The notes under the pieces were generated by a model. That model did no database searches and had not been told where the DNA came from. It saw nothing but the letters and a program-made list of their open reading frames with translations. A stretch of 64,000 bases of DNA from a virus. The stretch covers positions 1 to 64,000 of IMG/VR virus record IMGVR_UViG_3300050821_003463. One strand, 5' to 3'. Shown here one piece after another: positions 11,961 to 61,190 of this stretch. The stretch's first letter is position 1. Every line of letters begins with the position of its first letter. The position numbers were made by a program, and so were the translations under genes.

Positions 11961-12716
11961 ATGTGCGTCAGTAGCGGGCTTAAGGCTCTAAACAATACGG
12001 TCAAAGGTGCTCTGAGTTCCGCCCAGAGCGAAGCCTCATCAGTCTTCGGTGCAGCCAGCACTGTCTTCAATAACCTGATCAGCGGAATTCAACAGGTTGT
12101 AACGGGCGGACCTAGTCAGGCGGGCTTTGGCGCGGCTGAGCTTAATGCCAAGAACGCAGCGGCAGTCCAGGCGGGCGCGACGATGGCGCGTAACCTCGGC
12201 GGCGCAGCGGCGACGAGCGCGGCGGCACTTGGCGGCGGCAACGCGGTCGAACCGGCAGGCGGGACACAGGCGGCGATTCTCGCGGCTAAGACAGCAGCAG
12301 CAGAACAGACCGCGACGACTGAGAATCAGATTCAAACTGAGAATTTTGAGCAGGGCAATAAGAATTACGAAGCAGCGGTCGGGCAAGAGATGCAGTTGCC
12401 CAACGTGTTTAATCCTGCGACCTCATCCGAAGGACAGGTTAACGCGGCGGCAAATACCGCTACGAACGTCCAGAAAGAAATGGACACTCAATCGAATTGG
12501 TGGCAACCGATGGTCACGGCGGCAATCGGCGGCGCATCCAGCATGTTGACAGGCGGACTGACAAGTGGTATAGGTGGTGGAGGGCTTCCCGCGTCCGATT
12601 CAGGGACGTACGGCGCAGCCCCTTTCGTGGGCAGTGGTCAACCCACTCCGAGTGCAATGCCTGCCCCTAACATGACAGGACAATTCGGTAGTTCCCCGTT
12701 TCCAACAGGCATCTAA
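11961..12716 (+). CDS. internal virion / ejection protein (small)
   Basis: A/G/Q-rich helical sequence with hydrophobic G/A segments; gene order. Confidence 0.6.
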   Translation: MCVSSGLKALNNTVKGALSSAQSEASSVFGAASTVFNNLISGIQQVVTGGPSQAGFGAAELNAKNAAAVQAGATMARNLGGAAATSAAALGGGNAVEPAGGTQAAILAAKTAAAEQTATTENQIQTENFEQGNKNYEAAVGQEMQLPNVFNPATSSEGQVNAAANTATNVQKEMDTQSNWWQPMVTAAIGGASSMLTGGLTSGIGGGGLPASDSGTYGAAPFVGSGQPTPSAMPAPNMTGQFGSSPFPTGI

Positions 12717-12729
12717 AAAAGGAGTTTTA

Positions 12730-15096
12730 ATGTCCGAACCTACAGTGACCACGAACGCACCGCAGAAGCCAAACGCTATGGGCGGCGCACCGACGACCAC
12801 GCAAGACGTGTCGGGACAGATTACTCCTAACCCTACTCCTACCCCTACGCCTAGCGCACAGCCGACGACTCCCGCGCAACCCACCGCGCCTGCTCAGCCA
12901 TCGACCCCGGCGCAACAGCCCCGCCCCGCACAGCCTGCGACACAGCAGCCCACACCTCGTGGTCTGCACGCGTCTATTTTTGAAGGCGTGTTGAAGACTC
13001 TCGGCGGCGGTACACAGTTCATCAACCGTACTGACCCAGTGACGGGCGCGACAACTCGCGAACCGGTCCAACAGTCGAAGGGTCAACTCGGCAAGAGCAT
13101 CCTGGCAGGAGCTATCGCCGGAATGTTCGGCGGCATGGGCGCAAGAGACGCAGAAGGTCGCCACGATCCTCTGAAGGCAGCGCAGGAAGGCTTTGTCGCA
13201 GGACAGAAGCCGGTGCAGGAACGTGTCGCACAGTTACAGGCGACCGCAGACGAAGACACCTCGCGCCGCCAGATGGTCATGAAGAATAACATGGACCTGA
13301 TGCATCAGCAGATTGCGATGACGCATATGCAGCACCAGGAACTCGCCTCGACCGCTGATAATAACAACAAAGGCATCCTCGCGGACGCTGGAGACTTTGA
13401 CAAGAATCTCACCGGCACTGATGTCAATGATCCGACCAAGAAAGCAATTCAGGGTCGCGGGTTGACTTATCAGGAAGCGCTGGCTAAGCTGAAGGGCAAC
13501 TGGTCGAACACACTCGCCATTGTCGATGGATATCAGGACGTCCGTGGTCCGAATGGCGAGATGGAGCCAGAGCCGACTTACGCCGTGCTCAACCCGAACG
13601 TCACGATCAAGATGAGCGAAGATCAGGCGGCTGCGATGGCGAAGTTCAAGCCCGCATACGCAAACGCTTATCAGGCTACCGGAGGGAATCTTAAGATTCC
13701 ATTGAACCGGTATGTCGCGGATACGCACCAGTTGAATTCTCTGAATCAGGTGGAAGCGTATTTTGAGAATATCAAAGATCAAATCCCCGGCATGAAGAAC
13801 GCCCCCGACCTCTCGGCGCTCGCACGCGACCCGAAGGGCGGTAAGCAAGTTCTCAACGCTGTGAATGACGTTGAGAATGCAATCGGTCAAGGCGGCGACC
13901 CAGTCGCAGCACTGCAGCGTCTCGCAGGCACAGGCGGCGGGGCACTGATCCTCAAAGACATGGGGATCACGAACGAACAAGTTCAGACGCTCGTGAACGA
14001 CAAGACTCGCAAGGAAGCACTCGCCAAGGAAGGCGGGATGGGTCCGAAGGCACCAATGCCGGATGACACAGTCGCGGCTCTGCTCACAGCCGCAGATGCA
14101 TCTAACATTCCACAGGAGACGAAGGACGCGATCCACGCGGGCGCAAAGAAAGACGCGCAGGGTCACTACAATCTGAACATGCAGCAAGGTGAAGACCTTC
14201 GCAATCGTGTTCTGACTGCGCAGAACCAGACCAACCAGATCAACGAACGGAACCTCCTGGCAAACGGCGATCCGTCGCAGATGCAGAAGACAGCCCAGAA
14301 CACGATTGAGGGCGACGTCAATGACATCACGAAGGTCGCTTCGATGCGCGGTAACGCCCGTAGCAACGCGGTCAACGCGATGCACGACGCAGCCGCCAAC
14401 CTCGGTTTGGATACGACGAACTACAGTGAGTCGGCTCTCGAATCGCAAGCCAACATGTGGAAGGATTATACGGGCGGGCAGAAGACCCCGACCGGCAAGC
14501 AGCTTGTCTCGTTTGACGGATTTATCGGTCACACAGGAGCGGCGCTGGCAGCACAGCAACGCGTAGCGGATAAGTTCATGGGTCTATACCATCAGCCCAT
14601 CCTCAACATGACCATGAAGGAAATCGGATCGAAATTGACGGATGACGCAGATTGGGCAGCGTATTCCGCATCTCTCGAACCAGTTAAGCATGAGATTGAG
14701 AACTTCCTCGCGGCTGGATTTGCAACTAAGTCTGAAGATGCTCAAGCGATGCGAGCCATCATAAACGACACCTTGCCAATCAACCGCATGAACGCTACCC
14801 TGAAGCAGTTGGCGGAAACGGCTGACGTCCGTCTCGCAGCGCTCGGTAAGGCGTACACGAATAACATGGGACGAAACTTCAACAACCTGCTGTCTCCTGA
14901 TTCACAGAAGACGTTGCAAAAGTTGGGAGTCCCGAGTCAATCAGCAGCGTATACCGCGAAACTTCCTCGCGGCTGGAATAACCACCAGTTGACGCAGTTG
15001 ACAGATAAGAACGTTGCGAAGCAGTTCCTTCAGGCATCAGGTGGAAATATTCCTGCCGCCCGCGAGCTGATGAAGCGCAACGGATGGTCCGAATAG
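12730..15096 (+). CDS. internal virion / ejection protein (medium)
   Basis: 788 aa helical Q/A/N-rich; P/T/Q low-complexity N-terminus; ILAGAIAGMFGGMG segment. Confidence 0.6.
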   Translation: MSEPTVTTNAPQKPNAMGGAPTTTQDVSGQITPNPTPTPTPSAQPTTPAQPTAPAQPSTPAQQPRPAQPATQQPTPRGLHASIFEGVLKTLGGGTQFINRTDPVTGATTREPVQQSKGQLGKSILAGAIAGMFGGMGARDAEGRHDPLKAAQEGFVAGQKPVQERVAQLQATADEDTSRRQMVMKNNMDLMHQQIAMTHMQHQELASTADNNNKGILADAGDFDKNLTGTDVNDPTKKAIQGRGLTYQEALAKLKGNWSNTLAIVDGYQDVRGPNGEMEPEPTYAVLNPNVTIKMSEDQAAAMAKFKPAYANAYQATGGNLKIPLNRYVADTHQLNSLNQVEAYFENIKDQIPGMKNAPDLSALARDPKGGKQVLNAVNDVENAIGQGGDPVAALQRLAGTGGGALILKDMGITNEQVQTLVNDKTRKEALAKEGGMGPKAPMPDDTVAALLTAADASNIPQETKDAIHAGAKKDAQGHYNLNMQQGEDLRNRVLTAQNQTNQINERNLLANGDPSQMQKTAQNTIEGDVNDITKVASMRGNARSNAVNAMHDAAANLGLDTTNYSESALESQANMWKDYTGGQKTPTGKQLVSFDGFIGHTGAALAAQQRVADKFMGLYHQPILNMTMKEIGSKLTDDADWAAYSASLEPVKHEIENFLAAGFATKSEDAQAMRAIINDTLPINRMNATLKQLAETADVRLAALGKAYTNNMGRNFNNLLSPDSQKTLQKLGVPSQSAAYTAKLPRGWNNHQLTQLTDKNVAKQFLQASGGNIPAARELMKRNGWSE

Positions 15097-49711: not shown

Positions 49712-49924
49712 TCACCGGAAGTGCCTTCCTGTCTTCGGCGCGGAGGGGATTGGCTTCTTCGCCGTCAGACGATACGTAAGATAGTTAGACGGCTGAGGCA
49801 CGACGATTGAGAAAACTTCCCAACCATCCTGTGCCCACTCGTTGCACGCTTGCTGTATCTTGTCGGGTTGCGTCCAACTGTCGACATTGTTTACGACTAT
49901 GCGCGAACGGAATTCATATGTCAT
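49712..49924 (-). CDS. DUF4177-like protein ending TGRHFR
   Basis: YEFR...NEWAQDGWEVFSIV pattern. Confidence 0.6.
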   Translation of the reverse strand: MTYEFRSRIVVNNVDSWTQPDKIQQACNEWAQDGWEVFSIVVPQPSNYLTYRLTAKKPIPSAPKTGRHFR

Positions 49925-50952
49925 CGAAATTTTCTCCCAGTGGTAAAAAGGGGCTTGCTCGCACCAGCCGGTAACGCTGGCGTGCCCGCCGCTGCCTGCT
50001 GTCGAAGGAACTTCTGGAACGCTTCCTGCTGATCTTCCGGCATCAGCGCGACCGGCGCAGCGCTCGGCTTGACGCCTTCTGATAGCATGACCTTCAGGAT
50101 GTGCTTACACTCTGTACGTGGGGAGTGCTGCGTAAAGTTAGGGCACGAGCAAGCCCAGCCCTCAGCCGTTGTCGAGCCCTTCGGATTCACAGTGCGACTG
50201 ACCACGTAGGGTGCCTTCGCCGTGCCTTGCACAGTCCACTGCGTTGTCCACATCGGGGAGTTCGACTTCGGCAGTTTTCGCACCTCACCGTTCTTCATCG
50301 GAGGTGTGACCTTCTTTACCTTCACGAAAGACGGCTTTACGTGATCTTCGATATTCACAGTTCCCTTTCCGCTGCAGGCAGGGCAATGCGTGCCCGACCA
50401 GTCTGCCTGATTGTGATACAGATTGCAACCGAGACAGCGCACGACAGCGTACTCTATCTTCGGTCCAAAGACTTGCGCCCAGCTTTTAATTTTCTGAGAA
50501 ACCTGCTCCACCGTAGTCGGCGCAGTGATCGTGTCGCCCCACTTCTCGTACTTCCACATCGGCTTGCCGTCTTCGAGCACTCCACCTGAAGTGTCATTGA
50601 GCGCGCGCCGATAGTAGCCCTTCAGGTTGCTGTGGATGGGAACTGTAGGTTTTTCTTCCATCGCGTCCGCGTTATCCCAGATACCGGTTATGTCTTTCTG
50701 GAACGGAGACGCATAGTGGATGGGGTGTTTCGACAGCGGTATCCTGGGCGTCTCGTTCGTTATGGTCTTGACCTTCTTGCCGCACTTCGTGCAAGTGAAA
50801 ACTATCTTGGTGCCCGCCCAGTCTGCTGCGCCCACCGTGTTGAAGTGCGCGCACTTTGCCTGCTCAACGCGACAGGATGAGCATAGCCCGTCCCCGTGGG
50901 GAAAGTCTTCCGTATGGGTCGCGCACTTCGAGCAGTTGACTTTTGCCATCAC
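49921..50952 (-). CDS. multi-Zn-finger protein with SWIM domain, ending TGRKFR
   Basis: Several CxxC motifs; WACSCPNF...CKHI. Confidence 0.75.
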   Translation of the reverse strand: MMAKVNCSKCATHTEDFPHGDGLCSSCRVEQAKCAHFNTVGAADWAGTKIVFTCTKCGKKVKTITNETPRIPLSKHPIHYASPFQKDITGIWDNADAMEEKPTVPIHSNLKGYYRRALNDTSGGVLEDGKPMWKYEKWGDTITAPTTVEQVSQKIKSWAQVFGPKIEYAVVRCLGCNLYHNQADWSGTHCPACSGKGTVNIEDHVKPSFVKVKKVTPPMKNGEVRKLPKSNSPMWTTQWTVQGTAKAPYVVSRTVNPKGSTTAEGWACSCPNFTQHSPRTECKHILKVMLSEGVKPSAAPVALMPEDQQEAFQKFLRQQAAAGTPALPAGASKPLFTTGRKFR

Positions 50953-53839: not shown

Positions 53840-54017
53840 TATCGGCTCCCTACAGGCAGAACGCGAGCCGCGCCTGTGGCGGTATCAAATTCTACGGATA
53901 TGTATTCATCATATTCGATGAACTTATCTTTCAGCGCAACAGTAGCGCTCGCGGCATTCATATACTCGCCTTCTGTTGCGTAGTCGGGGTCCTTGAACGT
54001 GCAGATGAATTTTGCCA

Positions 54018-54449
54018 TCACCGCACCTCCTGATCGAGCAGATGGTTGACGATGATTGCCTTGCCCTTCGCGATGCAGCCAGGGCACGTCACAACCCAGG
54101 TATCCAAGTAGCAGCGGGTCACTGCGCCAGCCTTAGCACAGAGCGTGCTGCCTTCCTGGATAACGTGGCTGTTGGTTTCGACATCGTACGCGCTGGTGTT
54201 CAGGATGTGAAAGTGATGCTCCCCTGCGACCAGCACCGTATTGAACGGCAGAAGCTTCTGCACGTCTCCGTCTGCGATGCTGCGTTTGAGTACCTCGCGC
54301 TCCAGCCGATCAAAGTCAAGTATGATTAGCGTTGCCGTGGGTGTGAGTAAGTCGACGCTTGGGTCGACAACGTCAAACGTGGTGGATGCCTTGGCGAGCG
54401 CTGCTCGAAGTTCAGACTGGCGCAAAGCTTGATATTGAAATTCGTTCAT
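54018..54449 (-). CDS. hypothetical protein with C-terminal Zn motif
   Basis: H...LC...VTCPGC. Confidence 0.6.
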   Translation of the reverse strand: MNEFQYQALRQSELRAALAKASTTFDVVDPSVDLLTPTATLIILDFDRLEREVLKRSIADGDVQKLLPFNTVLVAGEHHFHILNTSAYDVETNSHVIQEGSTLCAKAGAVTRCYLDTWVVTCPGCIAKGKAIIVNHLLDQEVR

Positions 54450-54790
54450 AGGGTTACCTTTCGCTTGGCGAGTTCCGCCAAAAGTTCGAACGTTGAAAAA
54501 TTTTTCAGAGTCTTTCGTCCCTTCGGATGCCTCTGGTTTTTAATGCTCTGCCTGCGGGTTGCCCACCGTACGTTGCCTACAGCATAATGCCCATCGTTTT
54601 CAATTCGGTCAAGCATGCGACGTGAGGGGCGTTTGCCGAGTTCTGCGAAGAACTCCTCGAATGAGGTGAACAGGAATTTTATTCCCCGTCCACCATAATT
54701 CGGGAAGTCTGTGCAATTCGGATTCGTGCAACGATTACGAGCATCGTAGTAAGCCCGCCATTCGACGGGGTGTGTCTTGTAGGGTTTCAT
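54446..54790 (-). CDS. HNH-like endonuclease
   Basis: RC.NP...NYGGRGI, LDRIENDGHY..GNVRWAT. Confidence 0.8.
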   Translation of the reverse strand: MKPYKTHPVEWRAYYDARNRCTNPNCTDFPNYGGRGIKFLFTSFEEFFAELGKRPSRRMLDRIENDGHYAVGNVRWATRRQSIKNQRHPKGRKTLKNFSTFELLAELAKRKVTL

Positions 54791-54792
54791 GT

Positions 54793-55008
54793 TTACTGCT
54801 TCAGCGTGTTCTTGTGCTGAGCAGGCTTGTTGAATTCACCCTTGTGTGTGACCTTCACGGTTTGCCCGATTGCATTCCCGAAAGCCTGTGCGACTGCGTC
54901 GCAGCCTTTGCCCTGGTACCCATTCAGGTCTACCGTTTGGTCGCCGGTGGCGATGTCAATGTTGATGGTGATTATCTTAGCCAAAGTGCCCTCACTTTCG
55001 GTTGTCAA
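54793..55008 (-). CDS. DUF2997-like protein
   Basis: ITINID..G...VDLNGYQGKGC....F..AIG. Confidence 0.75.
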   Translation of the reverse strand: MTTESEGTLAKIITINIDIATGDQTVDLNGYQGKGCDAVAQAFGNAIGQTVKVTHKGEFNKPAQHKNTLKQ

Positions 55009-55399
55009 TGAATTGGAGTTGAACTTTCCCGTTGACGATCTTCTTGCCGAGGAACTGCAGACCGTTCTTGCGCGCGGTCTTCATGTCCACCTTCTCGGTA
55101 TACGCGACCTTCAGTTTCGTCATCCAGGTAGCGTCGTGCTTGTTGCTATCGTAGTCGCTGACGATTGCGCTGTAGGTCCCGTCCGCTGCTTTGACAAAGC
55201 CGAGATCGTTCGCTGCGCTACCTATGTGCTGGCGGCGCACGATGACGTTGGCTGTCTGTGCTCGCTTGTCGCCGTGATAGCCGAACAAGTTCTGTGCGAC
55301 TTCGTTCACTTCCACGTTCTTGTAGCCCATCTCACCAAGGGCTTCGACAAGACAGTCGCGATCTTTGTACTGTGTCTTCTGTGTGTGGTATGCGCTCAT
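54992..55399 (-). CDS. DUF1257 (Ycf35)-like protein
   Basis: MSAY...T..KD...LVEAL.EMG, DLGF....DG.Y..IVSDYD. Confidence 0.8.
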   Translation of the reverse strand: MSAYHTQKTQYKDRDCLVEALGEMGYKNVEVNEVAQNLFGYHGDKRAQTANVIVRRQHIGSAANDLGFVKAADGTYSAIVSDYDSNKHDATWMTKLKVAYTEKVDMKTARKNGLQFLGKKIVNGKVQLQFIDNRK

Positions 55400-55674
55400 G
55401 CTATTCGTTCTCCCTTCGAATTTGTTTGCCCGCGTTGACGAGAATGTCGATTACGTTAACGGCGTCTTGCTGTGAAAGTTTGCCCGCGTTCATCGACCAG
55501 CCGACATACAATAGCGCGTGGGATATCTTGAGATACCCGGGTGTGTGCCACGGTTGCTTCATCGTGTTCCCCTCTCATAATAGTTGGCGCGCGCTTCGAG
55601 TGCTGCGCGCTTTGCCTGTGATCCGCGCCGCCACATGTAGACCAGCGCGACGATTGCGAGACTGAAGATAACTT

Positions 55675-56133
55675 TCATAGTGTCCTCTCAGCAAAGAATT
55701 TATTGAGGAAGGCGATCTCCGCACTGATAGCTGCTTGTCTGTCGTGCGTCGTGAACGTCCGGTGATCCATCCACGCAGCGACGGGCGACGGTGCGACATG
55801 CTCCCAGGTTAGAACAGGTCCGCCGACAGGGGACGTATCGACTCGCCACTCGCATGCCCACGTTCGTGTCCACGCTGCGACCTTGCTCGTGTCGCTGGAG
55901 AGTATACGAAGTAGATTGAAGGCGAGACGCAGTAGCCAGCCTGCGGGTTCTACGTGCGACGCGCGCTTCGTGATCACCTCTCCGAGTTCGAGGAAGCAAT
56001 CTGCGCTGTCGGTCTTCAGGAAGACTTGGTCACCATTCTCATCTATCGTGACGGTGATAATCTTGTGCGCTGGAATCGGGAACGTCTTGGGATATCGCGC
56101 GTCGTACCCTTCAGGTTTTGAGATGTGCTTCAC
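55675..56133 (-). CDS. conserved-type protein with RASHVEP and WxVDxSPVGGP motifs
   Basis: Motifs recalled from small proteins that accompany DUF1257/DUF2997 operons. Confidence 0.6.
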   Translation of the reverse strand: MKHISKPEGYDARYPKTFPIPAHKIITVTIDENGDQVFLKTDSADCFLELGEVITKRASHVEPAGWLLRLAFNLLRILSSDTSKVAAWTRTWACEWRVDTSPVGGPVLTWEHVAPSPVAAWMDHRTFTTHDRQAAISAEIAFLNKFFAERTL

Positions 56134-56192
56134 AGATGTTCTCCAGTGTTATAGAGGTGAGGGGCGGCTGTGTGAGCCCGCCCCTGTTGAGT

Positions 56193-57104
56193 CTAGCGAA
56201 ACTTTCTGCCAGAGGTGATAACCATCGTCTTCAGTTCAGCGCGTACGCCTTCGAGTTGAGAGATGACGTACTGTTGAAGGTTGCCCGACTCTTTCAGGCG
56301 TTCGACCGTGACACCCTGCATCGCGTTCTTCACGACTTGCATGTTCTTCATGAAGTCCACGTCGTTCGCGAGATCACGATCAGGCAGCGTGTCGAGGAAC
56401 TCTTGCAGGTGCTCGACGTGACAGCCGTACATCTTCTTCGTCTTGCCCGCTTCAGGCTTGAGCATCGCGAAGAGTGCGTCGACCATCTCAGCACCAGCCA
56501 AGCGCATCGCATCGCGCCACTCGATAACAGCCTGCATGCGGATGCTGCGTTCCTTCTCCTGCTCACGGGCGATAATGATATCGCTCATGCCGGTGAGGTT
56601 CACGCTGCCGACGTTGCGGTAGTTGAACTCCAGAACGAAGCCAGCCTCTACTGTGTCGCTCGCTGGATAGTCGCTCCGGTCAAAGTTCTCAGCAAGAACC
56701 TCGCGCAGCGGTTGAAAGTCTACCGCTTCGAGTTCCCTGTACTTCGTCATGAACGCCTCGACTAACTTGGGGCGTCGAATCGTCTGGTATGCGACGATGG
56801 CGCGGTCCACTTCGTTCAGCCACTTGCGCGGAAGGAAGCGCGTTGCCTCGCGATACCAGCATGACTTGGACTCGACGTAGCGCTTCAGGAAGCCGTCCTG
56901 TGAGCGAATCTCTTCGAGTTCGGGTGAGTCCATCAGGCGTTTCTGGTGACGCAGTTCACTCGCCTGTGTAGCGGTTTCGACTTTCAGATTCTTGATCTGG
57001 CGCATGCGACCGATGCCCATGCGGAAGTTGATGGTGATTGAGACGCAGCTTTCAGTCTTGCTCAGGTCAACGTTCGCGACGGGTGCCACTGCGGGTGATG
57101 CCAT
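56193..57104 (-). CDS. DUF3150-like protein ending SGRKFR
   Basis: K.L.D...L, FLP, FDRSDYP, F...F pattern; operon context; GGGAG RBS. Confidence 0.6.
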   Translation of the reverse strand: MASPAVAPVANVDLSKTESCVSITINFRMGIGRMRQIKNLKVETATQASELRHQKRLMDSPELEEIRSQDGFLKRYVESKSCWYREATRFLPRKWLNEVDRAIVAYQTIRRPKLVEAFMTKYRELEAVDFQPLREVLAENFDRSDYPASDTVEAGFVLEFNYRNVGSVNLTGMSDIIIAREQEKERSIRMQAVIEWRDAMRLAGAEMVDALFAMLKPEAGKTKKMYGCHVEHLQEFLDTLPDRDLANDVDFMKNMQVVKNAMQGVTVERLKESGNLQQYVISQLEGVRAELKTMVITSGRKFR

Positions 57105-57246
57105 TTTATTTTCTCCCATAAGAAGTTTGTGGCGCGATTTATTTTGTGACTACGTCGCGCCGTCGGTCAGCCTGAGCCGCCGTGCTTACTGCGACTTCAG
57201 TTCACTACAGTTTAACGTCATGGAGTGAGCGTATGGACGGTTGCTA

Positions 57247-58797
57247 CTACCGCATCTTGCGTCCTTCCGTTATCTTCACGGTCGGCGCGTGCTTGGTTGC
57301 GGGTGGAGTGTACTTGTAGACGCCCTGGTTAGATGCCGACAGGAAGCGGTCGGTAGCTCCAGCGCGTAGCACCTCCATCTCTTCTTTATGACTGGTCATC
57401 AGAGGGATGATGTATTGACCAGCATCTTCCAGCGTGACGCGCATCTTCCGCGCCTTGTTAGCGCAGTTCTTGATGTCGCGCCCAGTCCAGCCCGTCATGT
57501 CGGGGTAGGTCTGTGCGGGGAGTTTGTTCGCTGTAACTTTCAGGTCCATGATGCCCTTCTTCTCTTCGTCGTTCGGCGCATCAAAGAAGAAGATGTCAGC
57601 GAAGCGGGAGAGCAGTTCGGGCGGTAGACCGTCCAGTTTGTTTGCGGTTGCGATGAGCCACACGCGACCGTCGCTAATGGATTGCACGGTGTGATTCGCG
57701 CTCACCATGTTTTTGTTCGAGTTGCCAACCAGTGAGTCTTGCATTTTTGAGATGCTGTAGTCGATGACTGGCTTGTCGAACTCACCAGCGATGCAGTCGA
57801 TGCTGTGCGACTTAGACGAGCCCGGTACACCCAGGAACAACGAGCAGTAGATGTCGTTATCGTTCACCCAGGTCAGCCACTCGCCAAGTAGGTCACCCTT
57901 GACGCCGCTGCTGTCGGTGTCGTTCCCTGAGAACTGGCGTTGTATCTCATCCATCCTCAGAATCACGGTGGGTGATTGCTCACCAGTCATCAGCTTGCGA
58001 CCGTATGCCTTGATCGATTCAACCCCGTACAGGTCCTTCAACTTCAGACCACCTGCGCGGTAGGTCAAACCTTTCTGCTGGGAGACGATAGTCTTCTTGC
58101 GAAGCCACAGCGTCTCGATATCCAAAATGCCCTTCGCTTTGTCCAAGCACATCGCAGTCGCCTGCTCTGCTGGGAAGAGAGGGATTCCGATGAGTGCGTC
58201 AACAGCGTTCAAGACTACCGCTTCACTCGGTCCAGCCTTGCACGCTGCGTACTTCACTTTGTCACTCGCGTATGCGTACGCGTATGTCTCGCGGACGATT
58301 GCTGCGAGTTCAGCGCGCGTCGGCAGTGGATGCTCTAGCACCAGCGTGTCTTGCTGCAACACGACTGGGATGCTGTCACCGATTCCGAGGAGTAGCACGC
58401 ACATGTTACCGCGCGCCTTGTAATCGTTGCGCAGATTGGCAACACCCTGGATGACTTTCTTGTCATCGTCCCAGGTGAGCTGCGGATTGAGGATGAATGC
58501 GAGGACATCTTCCTGCGCTGCTTCGAGGATGCCAAGCGCGATGGGCAGGTCAACCGATGCGCCGACTTCCATGCCGCTCTCGCTCGCCATCTTCTGTAGA
58601 GCGCTCGTGCCAGCGTCTGTAAGCCCGCGTAGCCCGTGGATGCTGTCCCAGGCTATGAAGGGGGTGACCTCTGCGAGTTCAGCGCCCAGCGAAGCCTGTA
58701 TCGTCGTAATGGTCGACGTAGGATCGAAGGTGCGGATAGCGACGGTCGGGGTCGATACCGCGCGTGCGTCAGTGAACATCTCAATGAATGACTTCAT
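57247..58797 (-). CDS. Ycf46-like AAA+ ATPase with permuted Walker B/Walker A order, ending EGRKMR
   Basis: Ycf46-like N domain (WD...GL, LP...EL); ILRMDEI upstream of FLGVPGSSKS; then LIATAN, LPPELLSRF, FFFDAP, GWTGRDI. Confidence 0.85.
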   Translation of the reverse strand: MKSFIEMFTDARAVSTPTVAIRTFDPTSTITTIQASLGAELAEVTPFIAWDSIHGLRGLTDAGTSALQKMASESGMEVGASVDLPIALGILEAAQEDVLAFILNPQLTWDDDKKVIQGVANLRNDYKARGNMCVLLLGIGDSIPVVLQQDTLVLEHPLPTRAELAAIVRETYAYAYASDKVKYAACKAGPSEAVVLNAVDALIGIPLFPAEQATAMCLDKAKGILDIETLWLRKKTIVSQQKGLTYRAGGLKLKDLYGVESIKAYGRKLMTGEQSPTVILRMDEIQRQFSGNDTDSSGVKGDLLGEWLTWVNDNDIYCSLFLGVPGSSKSHSIDCIAGEFDKPVIDYSISKMQDSLVGNSNKNMVSANHTVQSISDGRVWLIATANKLDGLPPELLSRFADIFFFDAPNDEEKKGIMDLKVTANKLPAQTYPDMTGWTGRDIKNCANKARKMRVTLEDAGQYIIPLMTSHKEEMEVLRAGATDRFLSASNQGVYKYTPPATKHAPTVKITEGRKMR

Positions 58798-59531: not shown

Positions 59532-60068
59532 CTACTGATGGCACAAGCCTGATTGGATGAGCGATACTGCAGTGCGCCCGTAGCTGCCCTGCAGCGACCA
59601 CGCCATGCCGTTGTCGATGAGGTGCTGGAAGAGGATCACCAAGTCATCCTGTTCGAGTTCACCGTTTTCAAACGCGATGATGTTGCCAGTGATATCATAC
59701 TGCGCTCGCACGTTCTTCTGTGCGAAGTTCGTAATGATATACGCGATGCCCTGCTCGAAGGTGCCGTCACTGTTCTTGCTACCCAACCCGCCGAATGACT
59801 TCGAGCCGGTGGGCAGTGAGACGTGGATGCTAGCAGAGCCAAAGCACTCGCCGTTCGATGCGTGTGAGACGCCGTACTTGATATTGAAACCACCAGGGAG
59901 AGTCGGTTTAGCGAACGCCTGCTCCCTGTAGCAGAGCGAAGCGTATGAGTAAGCGGTGCCTTTCACGTAAGCGACCGATACGCCAGCGCGTTCAAGCTGT
60001 GCTTGGATTGACTTCAAGCGACTGTAGATGCGTGAGGTGATCTGCTTACTGCTCAGTCCTGCGCCCAT
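59532..60068 (-). CDS. hypothetical protein with conserved-type C-terminal domain
   Basis: AGGAG RBS; FQHLIDNGMAWSLQGSYGR. Confidence 0.65.
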   Translation of the reverse strand: MGAGLSSKQITSRIYSRLKSIQAQLERAGVSVAYVKGTAYSYASLCYREQAFAKPTLPGGFNIKYGVSHASNGECFGSASIHVSLPTGSKSFGGLGSKNSDGTFEQGIAYIITNFAQKNVRAQYDITGNIIAFENGELEQDDLVILFQHLIDNGMAWSLQGSYGRTAVSLIQSGLCHQ

Positions 60069-61140: not shown

Positions 61141-61190
61141 ATCTTAGCTGGTGGTCTAGAACCTGTCAACAACAAAATAAAATTATTTTC
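61141..61190 (-). promoter_or_regulatory. strong sigma70-type promoter with UP element
   Basis: TTGACA-17 nt-TAAGAT preceded by an AT-rich tract. Confidence 0.75.

Follow-up and report, generated by a model that had tools for sequence, protein, structure and literature searches.

A conserved five-gene AAA+ module of phages and plasmids with a rearranged ATPase core and a shared C-terminal tail: a candidate Cdc48/p97-like remodelling machine

We analysed a group of five genes in a 64-kb stretch of DNA from a soil phage (hereafter, the window), the first 64 kb of the 94.5-kb virus record IMGVR_UViG_3300050821_003463, which was judged complete. The genes encode, in this order and on the minus strand, an AAA+ ATPase (57247–58797, 516 residues), a DUF3150-like helical protein (56193–57119, 308 residues, or 303 if the start is at MASPAV), a 152-residue protein of no named family with a RASHVEP motif (55675–56133; hereafter the RASHVEP protein), a DUF1257 (Ycf35-like, PF06868) protein (54992–55399, 135 residues) and a DUF2997-like protein (54793–55008, 71 residues), which falls below the PF11211 cut-off. 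With a probability of roughly 0.55, these genes encode a single conserved machine, carried by mobile DNA and centred on an active AAA+ ATPase, which would act as a Cdc48/p97-like remodeller. This reading is based on the observed gene linkage, a block swap in the ATPase core, conservation of the catalytic residues and the distribution of a short C-terminal tail. An earlier reading of the sequence (the original prediction) had described five co-oriented genes interrupted only by two tiny open reading frames (ORFs), and we found seven close-packed minus-strand ORFs whose boundaries agree exactly with the interval 54793–58797.

An alignment-based scan of IMG/VR revealed 13 loci in which the ATPase was 37–73% identical to that of the window. 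A nucleotide-level pattern search for the RASHVEP motif revealed three additional contigs, binned into metagenome-assembled genomes, and tblastn searches of cultured phages added only the Tunturiibacter phage Tunturi_3 and, for the ATPase, the Aeromonas phage HJ05; the DUF1257 query had no match among cultured phages. Single-protein scans of viral contigs yielded nothing for the ATPase, the 308-residue protein, P0340 and P0264, and a scan of genome contigs with the DUF3150-like alignment (A2) was also negative. We then counted linkage in 12 independent informative loci, i.e., those extending past the ATPase gene, including Tunturi_3. Genes for the ATPase, DUF1257, DUF2997 and DUF3150-like proteins were present in all 12 and the RASHVEP gene in 11, with ATPase identity to the window protein as low as 37%. 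Three gene orders were observed: that of the window; ATPase, DUF1257, DUF2997, RASHVEP and DUF3150-like; and a third in which the DUF3150-like gene lies upstream of the ATPase gene. In all three, the five genes were confined to 4–5 kb, whereas the genes flanking them in the window were found again in only 0–4 loci. The flanks thus change while the five genes persist, suggesting that the five are kept together; the co-occurrence elsewhere that was expected of a functional unit was borne out by this neighbourhood analysis. The locus lacking a detectable RASHVEP homolog (L011) has a gap of ~780 bp (12260–13042) where the gene would be expected, perhaps occupied by a replacement or by a highly diverged homolog.

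The ATPase is composed of two AAA-type modules and has no separate N-terminal substrate- or cofactor-binding domain. Residues ~1–250 form a degenerate AAA+-like module in which neither regular-expression searches nor alignments revealed a P-loop motif, and residues ~251–490 form an active AAA module of the classical clade whose core is swapped, followed by a flexible linker and a GRKMR tail. Walker A (GVPGSSKS, residues 323–330) is encoded at 57808–57831 on the minus strand. Its K329 and S330, as well as D283 and E284 of Walker B, N386 of sensor 1 and the arginine finger R398, were invariant among 17 homologs with 53–85% identity. Because all catalytic residues are kept, the protein should, as judged from its sequence, still bind and hydrolyze ATP. 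In pore loop 1, the usual aromatic residue is missing: the sequence is S-L-V-G in the window protein and either H-V-G or I-V-G in its relatives. A single-chain AlphaFold2 model (predicted local distance difference test, pLDDT, 82) contained five strands and a helical lid and could be aligned over ~400 residues to Rix7, NVL, Pex1/6, p97/Cdc48 and VAT (Foldseek and VIA, Z 12–14). The C-terminal module (residues 240–487) aligned to spastin, Vps4, FtsH and katanin (VIA, Z 12–14), and residues 1–230 aligned to AAA+ modules such as those of RFC and Rubisco activase (Z 8.5–9.9). The ATPase probably forms a hexameric ring. Against the anti-phage defence models of PADLOC, it gave only P-loop-level matches, to IetA (19 bits, residues 319–364) and TRIP13, and the four partner proteins gave none; an NCBIfam scan of the module proteins also returned P-loop matches only, and family scans detected no DNA-binding domain in any of the five proteins.

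The core of this ATPase departs from the usual linear order of AAA motifs. The AAA profile PF00004 matched it at profile positions 2–47 only (32.8 bits), and a Walker B/helix-3 block (residues 274–318; 57844–57978, minus strand), which includes VILRMDEI with the invariant D283 and E284, precedes Walker A, such that Walker B (278–285) is located 40 residues ahead of it. In HJ05, whose ATPase has the normal order, helix 2 and the sensor-1 strand are separated by the segment "…ALVDEVDKVF…DSGVGARVLGTMLTFMQES". The same position is vacant in the window ATPase and in all members of its clade, in which the homologous "…VILRMDEIQRQF…DSSGVKGDLLGEWLTWVND" directly precedes the Walker A strand. We tested the block swap by building a profile from the upstream Walker B segment alone and searching it against normal-order relatives. 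This profile found the downstream Walker B of HJ05 with 14.3 bits (shuffled sequences reached 4.5 at most, and 0 of 2000 scored as high), the downstream Walker B of five bacterial ATPases with 25–33 bits and a plasmid ATPase with an E-value of 9.7e-11. HMMER split the full-length match to the plasmid ATPase into profile positions 318–375, then 275–313 and then 375–490, and a PDB profile search likewise skipped the Walker B region of VAT. Against the PDB, the block profile, too short for significance alone, reached E-values of only 0.2–0.4 (Walker B of ClpA). Walker B preceded Walker A in 16 of 16 phage-clade sequences, and Walker A came first in each of the six normal-order relatives for which we could place both motifs; the plasmid ATPase, also of normal order, was matched along the entire length of PF00004. 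The AlphaFold2 model of the window protein retained all five core strands, predicted in a new chain order. Together, the alignments indicate that, in this phage clade, the strand bearing Walker B moved with its next helix to a place ahead of the Walker A strand, in agreement with the permuted ATPase proposed originally.

Among the partner proteins, the DUF1257 protein matched PF06868 above the cut-off (37.1 versus 22.2 bits, E-value 3.9e-9) over positions 1–90 of the 103-position profile, and its Atlas model had a template modelling (TM) score of 0.94 to a DUF1257 cluster. The DUF2997-like protein of the window scored below the PF11211 cut-off of 24.1 (16 bits, E-value 0.011). Orthologs from Tunturi_3 (29.1 bits) and HJ05 (34.9 bits) exceeded this cut-off, and a local DUF2997 profile united the window protein with its orthologs, which were present in every locus. 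A G-[FY]-x-G-x-G-C motif, in which one cysteine is invariant, is kept by all DUF2997-like orthologs. Its Gly-aromatic pair loosely resembles glycyl-radical motifs; the idea that it marks a carrier of the glycyl-radical type, acted on by a radical SAM enzyme, was considered but found no support, as the genome contains no radical SAM gene.

The 308-residue protein had no direct Pfam match, even at an E-value of 10. A family profile built from 22 orthologs found 4086 representative clusters, and 20 of 60 diverse family members matched PF11348 (DUF3150, best E-value 1.8e-7), compared with no more than two for any other family. The PF11348 cut-off (24.9) was exceeded by the L011 ortholog (25.8) and by a plasmid homolog (35.3). 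The best viral match of its AlphaFold2 model (pLDDT 79) in BFVD was also a DUF3150 protein, aligned over the full length (E-value 3.9e-10, TM scores 0.68/0.70), and only generic helical bundles (Z no higher than 9.3) were found in the PDB. Transitive sequence and fold evidence thus indirectly supports assignment of this protein as DUF3150-like. No fusions to other parts of the module were detected among 147 DUF3150-like representatives. In Tunturi_3, the DUF3150-like ortholog is gp96 (A5 profile, E-value 4.6e-93). This gene (L001 10690–11649) is labelled "HNH endonuclease" in GenBank, and Pfam sees no HNH domain in its product.

The RASHVEP protein could not be assigned to a named family in Pfam, NCBIfam or the Atlas, and its profile had no sequence match in the PDB; Atlas searches returned unnamed clusters only. 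The RASHVEP motif was kept in 11 orthologs, and the invariant residues were R57, S59, H60, P63, R69, R76, T89, R90, W96, P102, R132, A135 and E139.

A further feature of the module is a short basic C-terminal peptide. The ATPase ends with …ITEGRKMR (GRKMR, residues 512–516; 57250–57264, minus strand) and the DUF3150-like protein with …ITSGRKFR (GRKFR; 56196–56210, minus strand). R513 and R516 of the ATPase tail were invariant and K514 was conserved in at least 90% of sequences in the ATPase alignment (A1), and G299, R300 and R303 of the DUF3150-like tail were invariant in A2. Residues 502–516 of the ATPase had pLDDT values below 50 and the DUF3150-like tail was also located on a low-confidence linker; such very low confidence ahead of the tail is as expected for a tethered peptide in these models. 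The original prediction that two members share a GRKFR-type tail with distant genes held, with a larger set of carriers: five genes of this genome end with GR[KRH][FM]R-stop. The other three, all on the minus strand, encode a 70-residue DUF4177-like protein (49712–49924, GRHFR), a Cys-rich protein of 343 residues (49921–50952, GRKFR), whose tail was kept in L007, L008 and L010, and a 116-residue protein with a CxxCH motif (genome positions 70018–70368, GRRFR). Tail codons differ between carriers, arguing against a DNA repeat.

We further examined the occurrence of this tail. It persists on the ATPase and DUF3150-like protein across a divergent phage clade, in many cases with several acidic residues after it, and each of the related phages has its own extra tail carriers. 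Of 60 diverse DUF3150-like representatives, 25 had a canonical GR[KR]-hydrophobic-[RK] end and 17 more a looser R-[KR]-x-[RK] end. In Tunturi_3, degenerate forms (GRIIR and DRKFH) were found on the ATPase and DUF3150-like protein only. The corresponding pair on a Ca. Manganitrophus plasmid ends with QRRLRG and KRKIR, and the C-terminus of the HJ05 ATPase (NRRAIRTQG) is an ambiguous case. The tail was absent from the ATPases of seven Acidobacteriota loci described below, and no basic tail was found on DUF3150-like proteins that lie beside MoxR-like AAA and VWA proteins on proteobacterial plasmids. From these sequences, the tail of the motor goes with the DUF3150-like/RASHVEP pair, and the extra carriers are lineage-specific. 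As the ATPase itself is tailed, a docking handle common to several subunits fits better than a simple substrate tag.

Simpler versions of the module were found outside this phage clade. Of 301 Acidobacteriota genomes that were sampled, six contained DUF1257, and in all seven loci a homologous ATPase gene was located just upstream and a DUF2997 gene downstream, which bears out the claim that these three genes co-occur in bacteria; neither a DUF3150-like nor a RASHVEP gene was present in any of the seven. HJ05 also has only the ATPase-DUF1257-DUF2997 triad. A complete run occurs on plasmids of Ca. Manganitrophus (Nitrospirota), which carry a normal-order AAA ATPase followed by DUF1257, DUF2997, DUF3150 and RASHVEP-type genes; the match to the RASHVEP profile there is a truncated protein of 84 residues (E-value 3.8e-9). 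For cyanobacteria, the literature that we read describes only a duf2997-ycf35-fed7 cluster (PMC4284462) and no linkage to ycf46. On two proteobacterial plasmids (L045, 5923–8016; L046, 4779–8009), a DUF3150-like gene adjoins a gene for a VWA-domain protein. A 341-residue AAA ATPase is encoded immediately upstream of this pair in L046 and a 347-residue ATP-binding protein ~3.6 kb upstream in L045, and toprim, methyltransferase, toxin and ParB genes are located nearby. This second, different AAA+ context suggests that the DUF3150-like family has partnered AAA+ motors repeatedly.

If the five genes do form one machine, its motor would have a two-module layout, with a P-loop-less N-terminal AAA+-like module followed by a catalytic classical-clade module. 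DUF1257 and DUF2997 would be ancient obligate cofactors, their age being suggested by the existence of the three-gene form in bacteria, and the DUF3150-like and RASHVEP proteins would be a later add-on pair. The tail may be a docking handle by which the subunits are held together on one receptor, and at least three further unrelated proteins of this lineage appear to have acquired it, presumably for recruitment to the same site. Soon after the element enters the cell, the machine might spend ATP on unfolding, extracting or taking apart its target, a protein or a nucleoprotein. In this scheme, we infer the assembly into a ring, the function of the tail in docking, and the remodelling activity with its timing and target. 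The module is sporadic in bacteria and is carried by phages and plasmids, and DUF3150-like relatives occur among plasmid maintenance and entry genes, which points to a possible role during establishment of mobile DNA in the cell.

Several points weigh against this scheme. The non-aromatic pore loop 1 makes substrate threading uncertain, and the tail, being basic, could simply bind nucleic acid. Most phage loci come from one broad phage group, so that the linkage could be in part inherited synteny, and a search for fusions of DUF1257 to other components came up empty, which is weak evidence. Early expression is deduced only from the place of the genes in a leftward block of non-structural genes. 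RNA evidence consists of two short contigs of one soil metatranscriptome that are identical to window positions 53854–54069, in a downstream gene, and 58548–58777, inside the ATPase gene; they give a weak hint of module transcription and may reflect DNA carry-over.

Other explanations of the same observations concern the tail and the membership of the module. The tail might be a nucleic-acid anchor or a tag for a host protease or chaperone, in which case its carriers would be linked only by destination or lifetime. It is rich in Arg and Lys, its carriers lie up to 20 kb apart in the genome, and the RASHVEP protein, with five invariant arginines, is no obvious receptor for a basic peptide. Basic C-terminal peptides also serve as protease-recognition signals, as does that of MuA for ClpX. 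However, the tail has survived deep divergence on precisely the two module proteins while other carriers vary by lineage, and Tunturi_3 retains a tail form on the ATPase and DUF3150-like protein only; we regard an anchor or host tag as unlikely. The tail may otherwise be a portable address tag through which the motor, its DUF3150-like partner and unrelated phage proteins share one receptor, either the RASHVEP protein or the acidic N-terminal module of the motor. This more specific proposal is quite unlikely at present; if true, it would describe a private phage tag-and-remodel system around a rewired AAA+ motor, and the same logic would account for ycf35, an orphan gene of plastids and cyanobacteria, and for ycf46 if the two are linked.

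It is also conceivable that the module does not unfold proteins but acts on nucleic acids, for example in loading, in partition or in the establishment of replication. The catalytic module is nevertheless closest to spastin, Vps4, FtsH, Rix7 and p97 (Z 12–14), and none of the five proteins has a detectable DNA-binding domain. The resemblance of the N-terminal module to clamp-loader/RFC-type AAA+ proteins (Z 8.5–9.9) would favor such a function but amounts to generic AAA+ similarity, and we consider this reading very doubtful, even with the non-aromatic pore loop, the basic tails and the location of plasmid DUF3150-like genes near ParB, toprim and methyltransferase genes in its favor. Finally, only the ATPase-DUF1257-DUF2997 triad may be functional, the DUF3150-like and RASHVEP genes being independent neighbors kept by shared phage ancestry. 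The triad does stand alone in bacterial loci and HJ05, and DUF3150-like proteins of other plasmids sit with a different AAA+/VWA pair; yet the five genes stay within 4–5 kb through three orders while their flanks turn over, a Nitrospirota plasmid carries the full set in very different surroundings, and the ATPase is tailed only where the DUF3150-like and RASHVEP genes occur. We consider a triad with two bystanders very improbable. A single five-gene machine remains the reading that we prefer.

In the window, the structural genes of the phage are on the plus strand and are followed by a long leftward block of non-structural genes. The two tiny ORFs within the module (55559–55678, 39 residues, with a hydrophobic N-terminus; 55401–55562, 53 residues; both on the minus strand) overlap their neighbors by four bases. 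Homologs of these ORFs were absent from every related locus, including the closest relative (L010), and they are lineage-specific and probably outside the machine. Directly downstream of the DUF2997 gene is an HNH endonuclease gene (54446–54790, minus strand; PHROG 3377, E-value 1.7e-22), for which L007 alone has a homolog in the corresponding position; the gene probably encodes a mobile homing endonuclease and does not belong to the module. A 178-residue protein (59532–60068, minus strand), whose C-terminus matches DUF7417 (E-value 4e-16), has homologs near the module in L006, L010 and L013, at varying positions. A terminator scan found no minus-strand terminator-like site between the module genes, and the nearest good promoter-like site upstream was at 61169–61141; in both promoter and terminator scans, the numbers of sites were not above those in shuffled sequence.

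DUF1257 (ycf35) and DUF2997 have been function-orphan genes of cyanobacteria and plastids for decades. That phages, plasmids and bacteria all have them as obligate neighbors of an AAA+ motor provides a concrete hypothesis for both families. Retention of the catalytic residues despite the moved strand-helix unit bears on how much rewiring the AAA+ fold tolerates, and, if the tail is a docking handle, it would represent a new recruitment code in phage biology. Our literature searches found no description of the module, of DUF3150 or of an AAA+ protein with this block order. Tunturi_3, which carries the module, can be cultivated with its host, Tunturiibacter psychrotolerans X5P2; the paper describing this phage does not discuss the module genes.

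Among known systems, the phage ATPase resembles Cdc48/p97/VAT and Rix7/NVL in having two stacked AAA-type modules, of which the catalytic one belongs to the classical clade, with ~400 residues aligned at Z 13–14. The C-terminal tail of p97 serves cofactor docking, and the flexible tail of the phage ATPase could do likewise. Unlike Cdc48/p97, the phage protein lacks the double-psi-barrel N-domain, its first module is P-loop-less, its Walker B block precedes Walker A and its pore loop is non-aromatic; in addition, the DUF1257, DUF2997, DUF3150-like and RASHVEP proteins are unrelated to known p97 cofactors. A different parallel is offered by ClpX adaptors (SspB and others), which have a common C-terminal ClpX-binding peptide on a flexible linker. 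By analogy, the tail carriers, unrelated proteins with one C-terminal peptide on a flexible linker, may likewise be tethered to one AAA+ machine, but here the ATPase itself is tailed, the sequence is different and the receptor is not known. Plasmid loci with MoxR/CobS-like AAA+ and VWA proteins also place a helical protein of the DUF3150 superfamily beside an AAA+ ATPase on mobile DNA. However, the ATPase there belongs to another AAA+ clade, VWA replaces DUF1257 and DUF2997, and the DUF3150-like protein is tail-less. With the exception of the Manganitrophus plasmid, the normal-order triads of bacteria, plasmids and HJ05 do not include a DUF3150-like or RASHVEP partner, and their ATPases, unlike that of the phage, match the whole PF00004 profile; yet these ATPases are homologous to the phage protein over the full length, including the N-terminal module, and are likewise followed by DUF1257 and then DUF2997.

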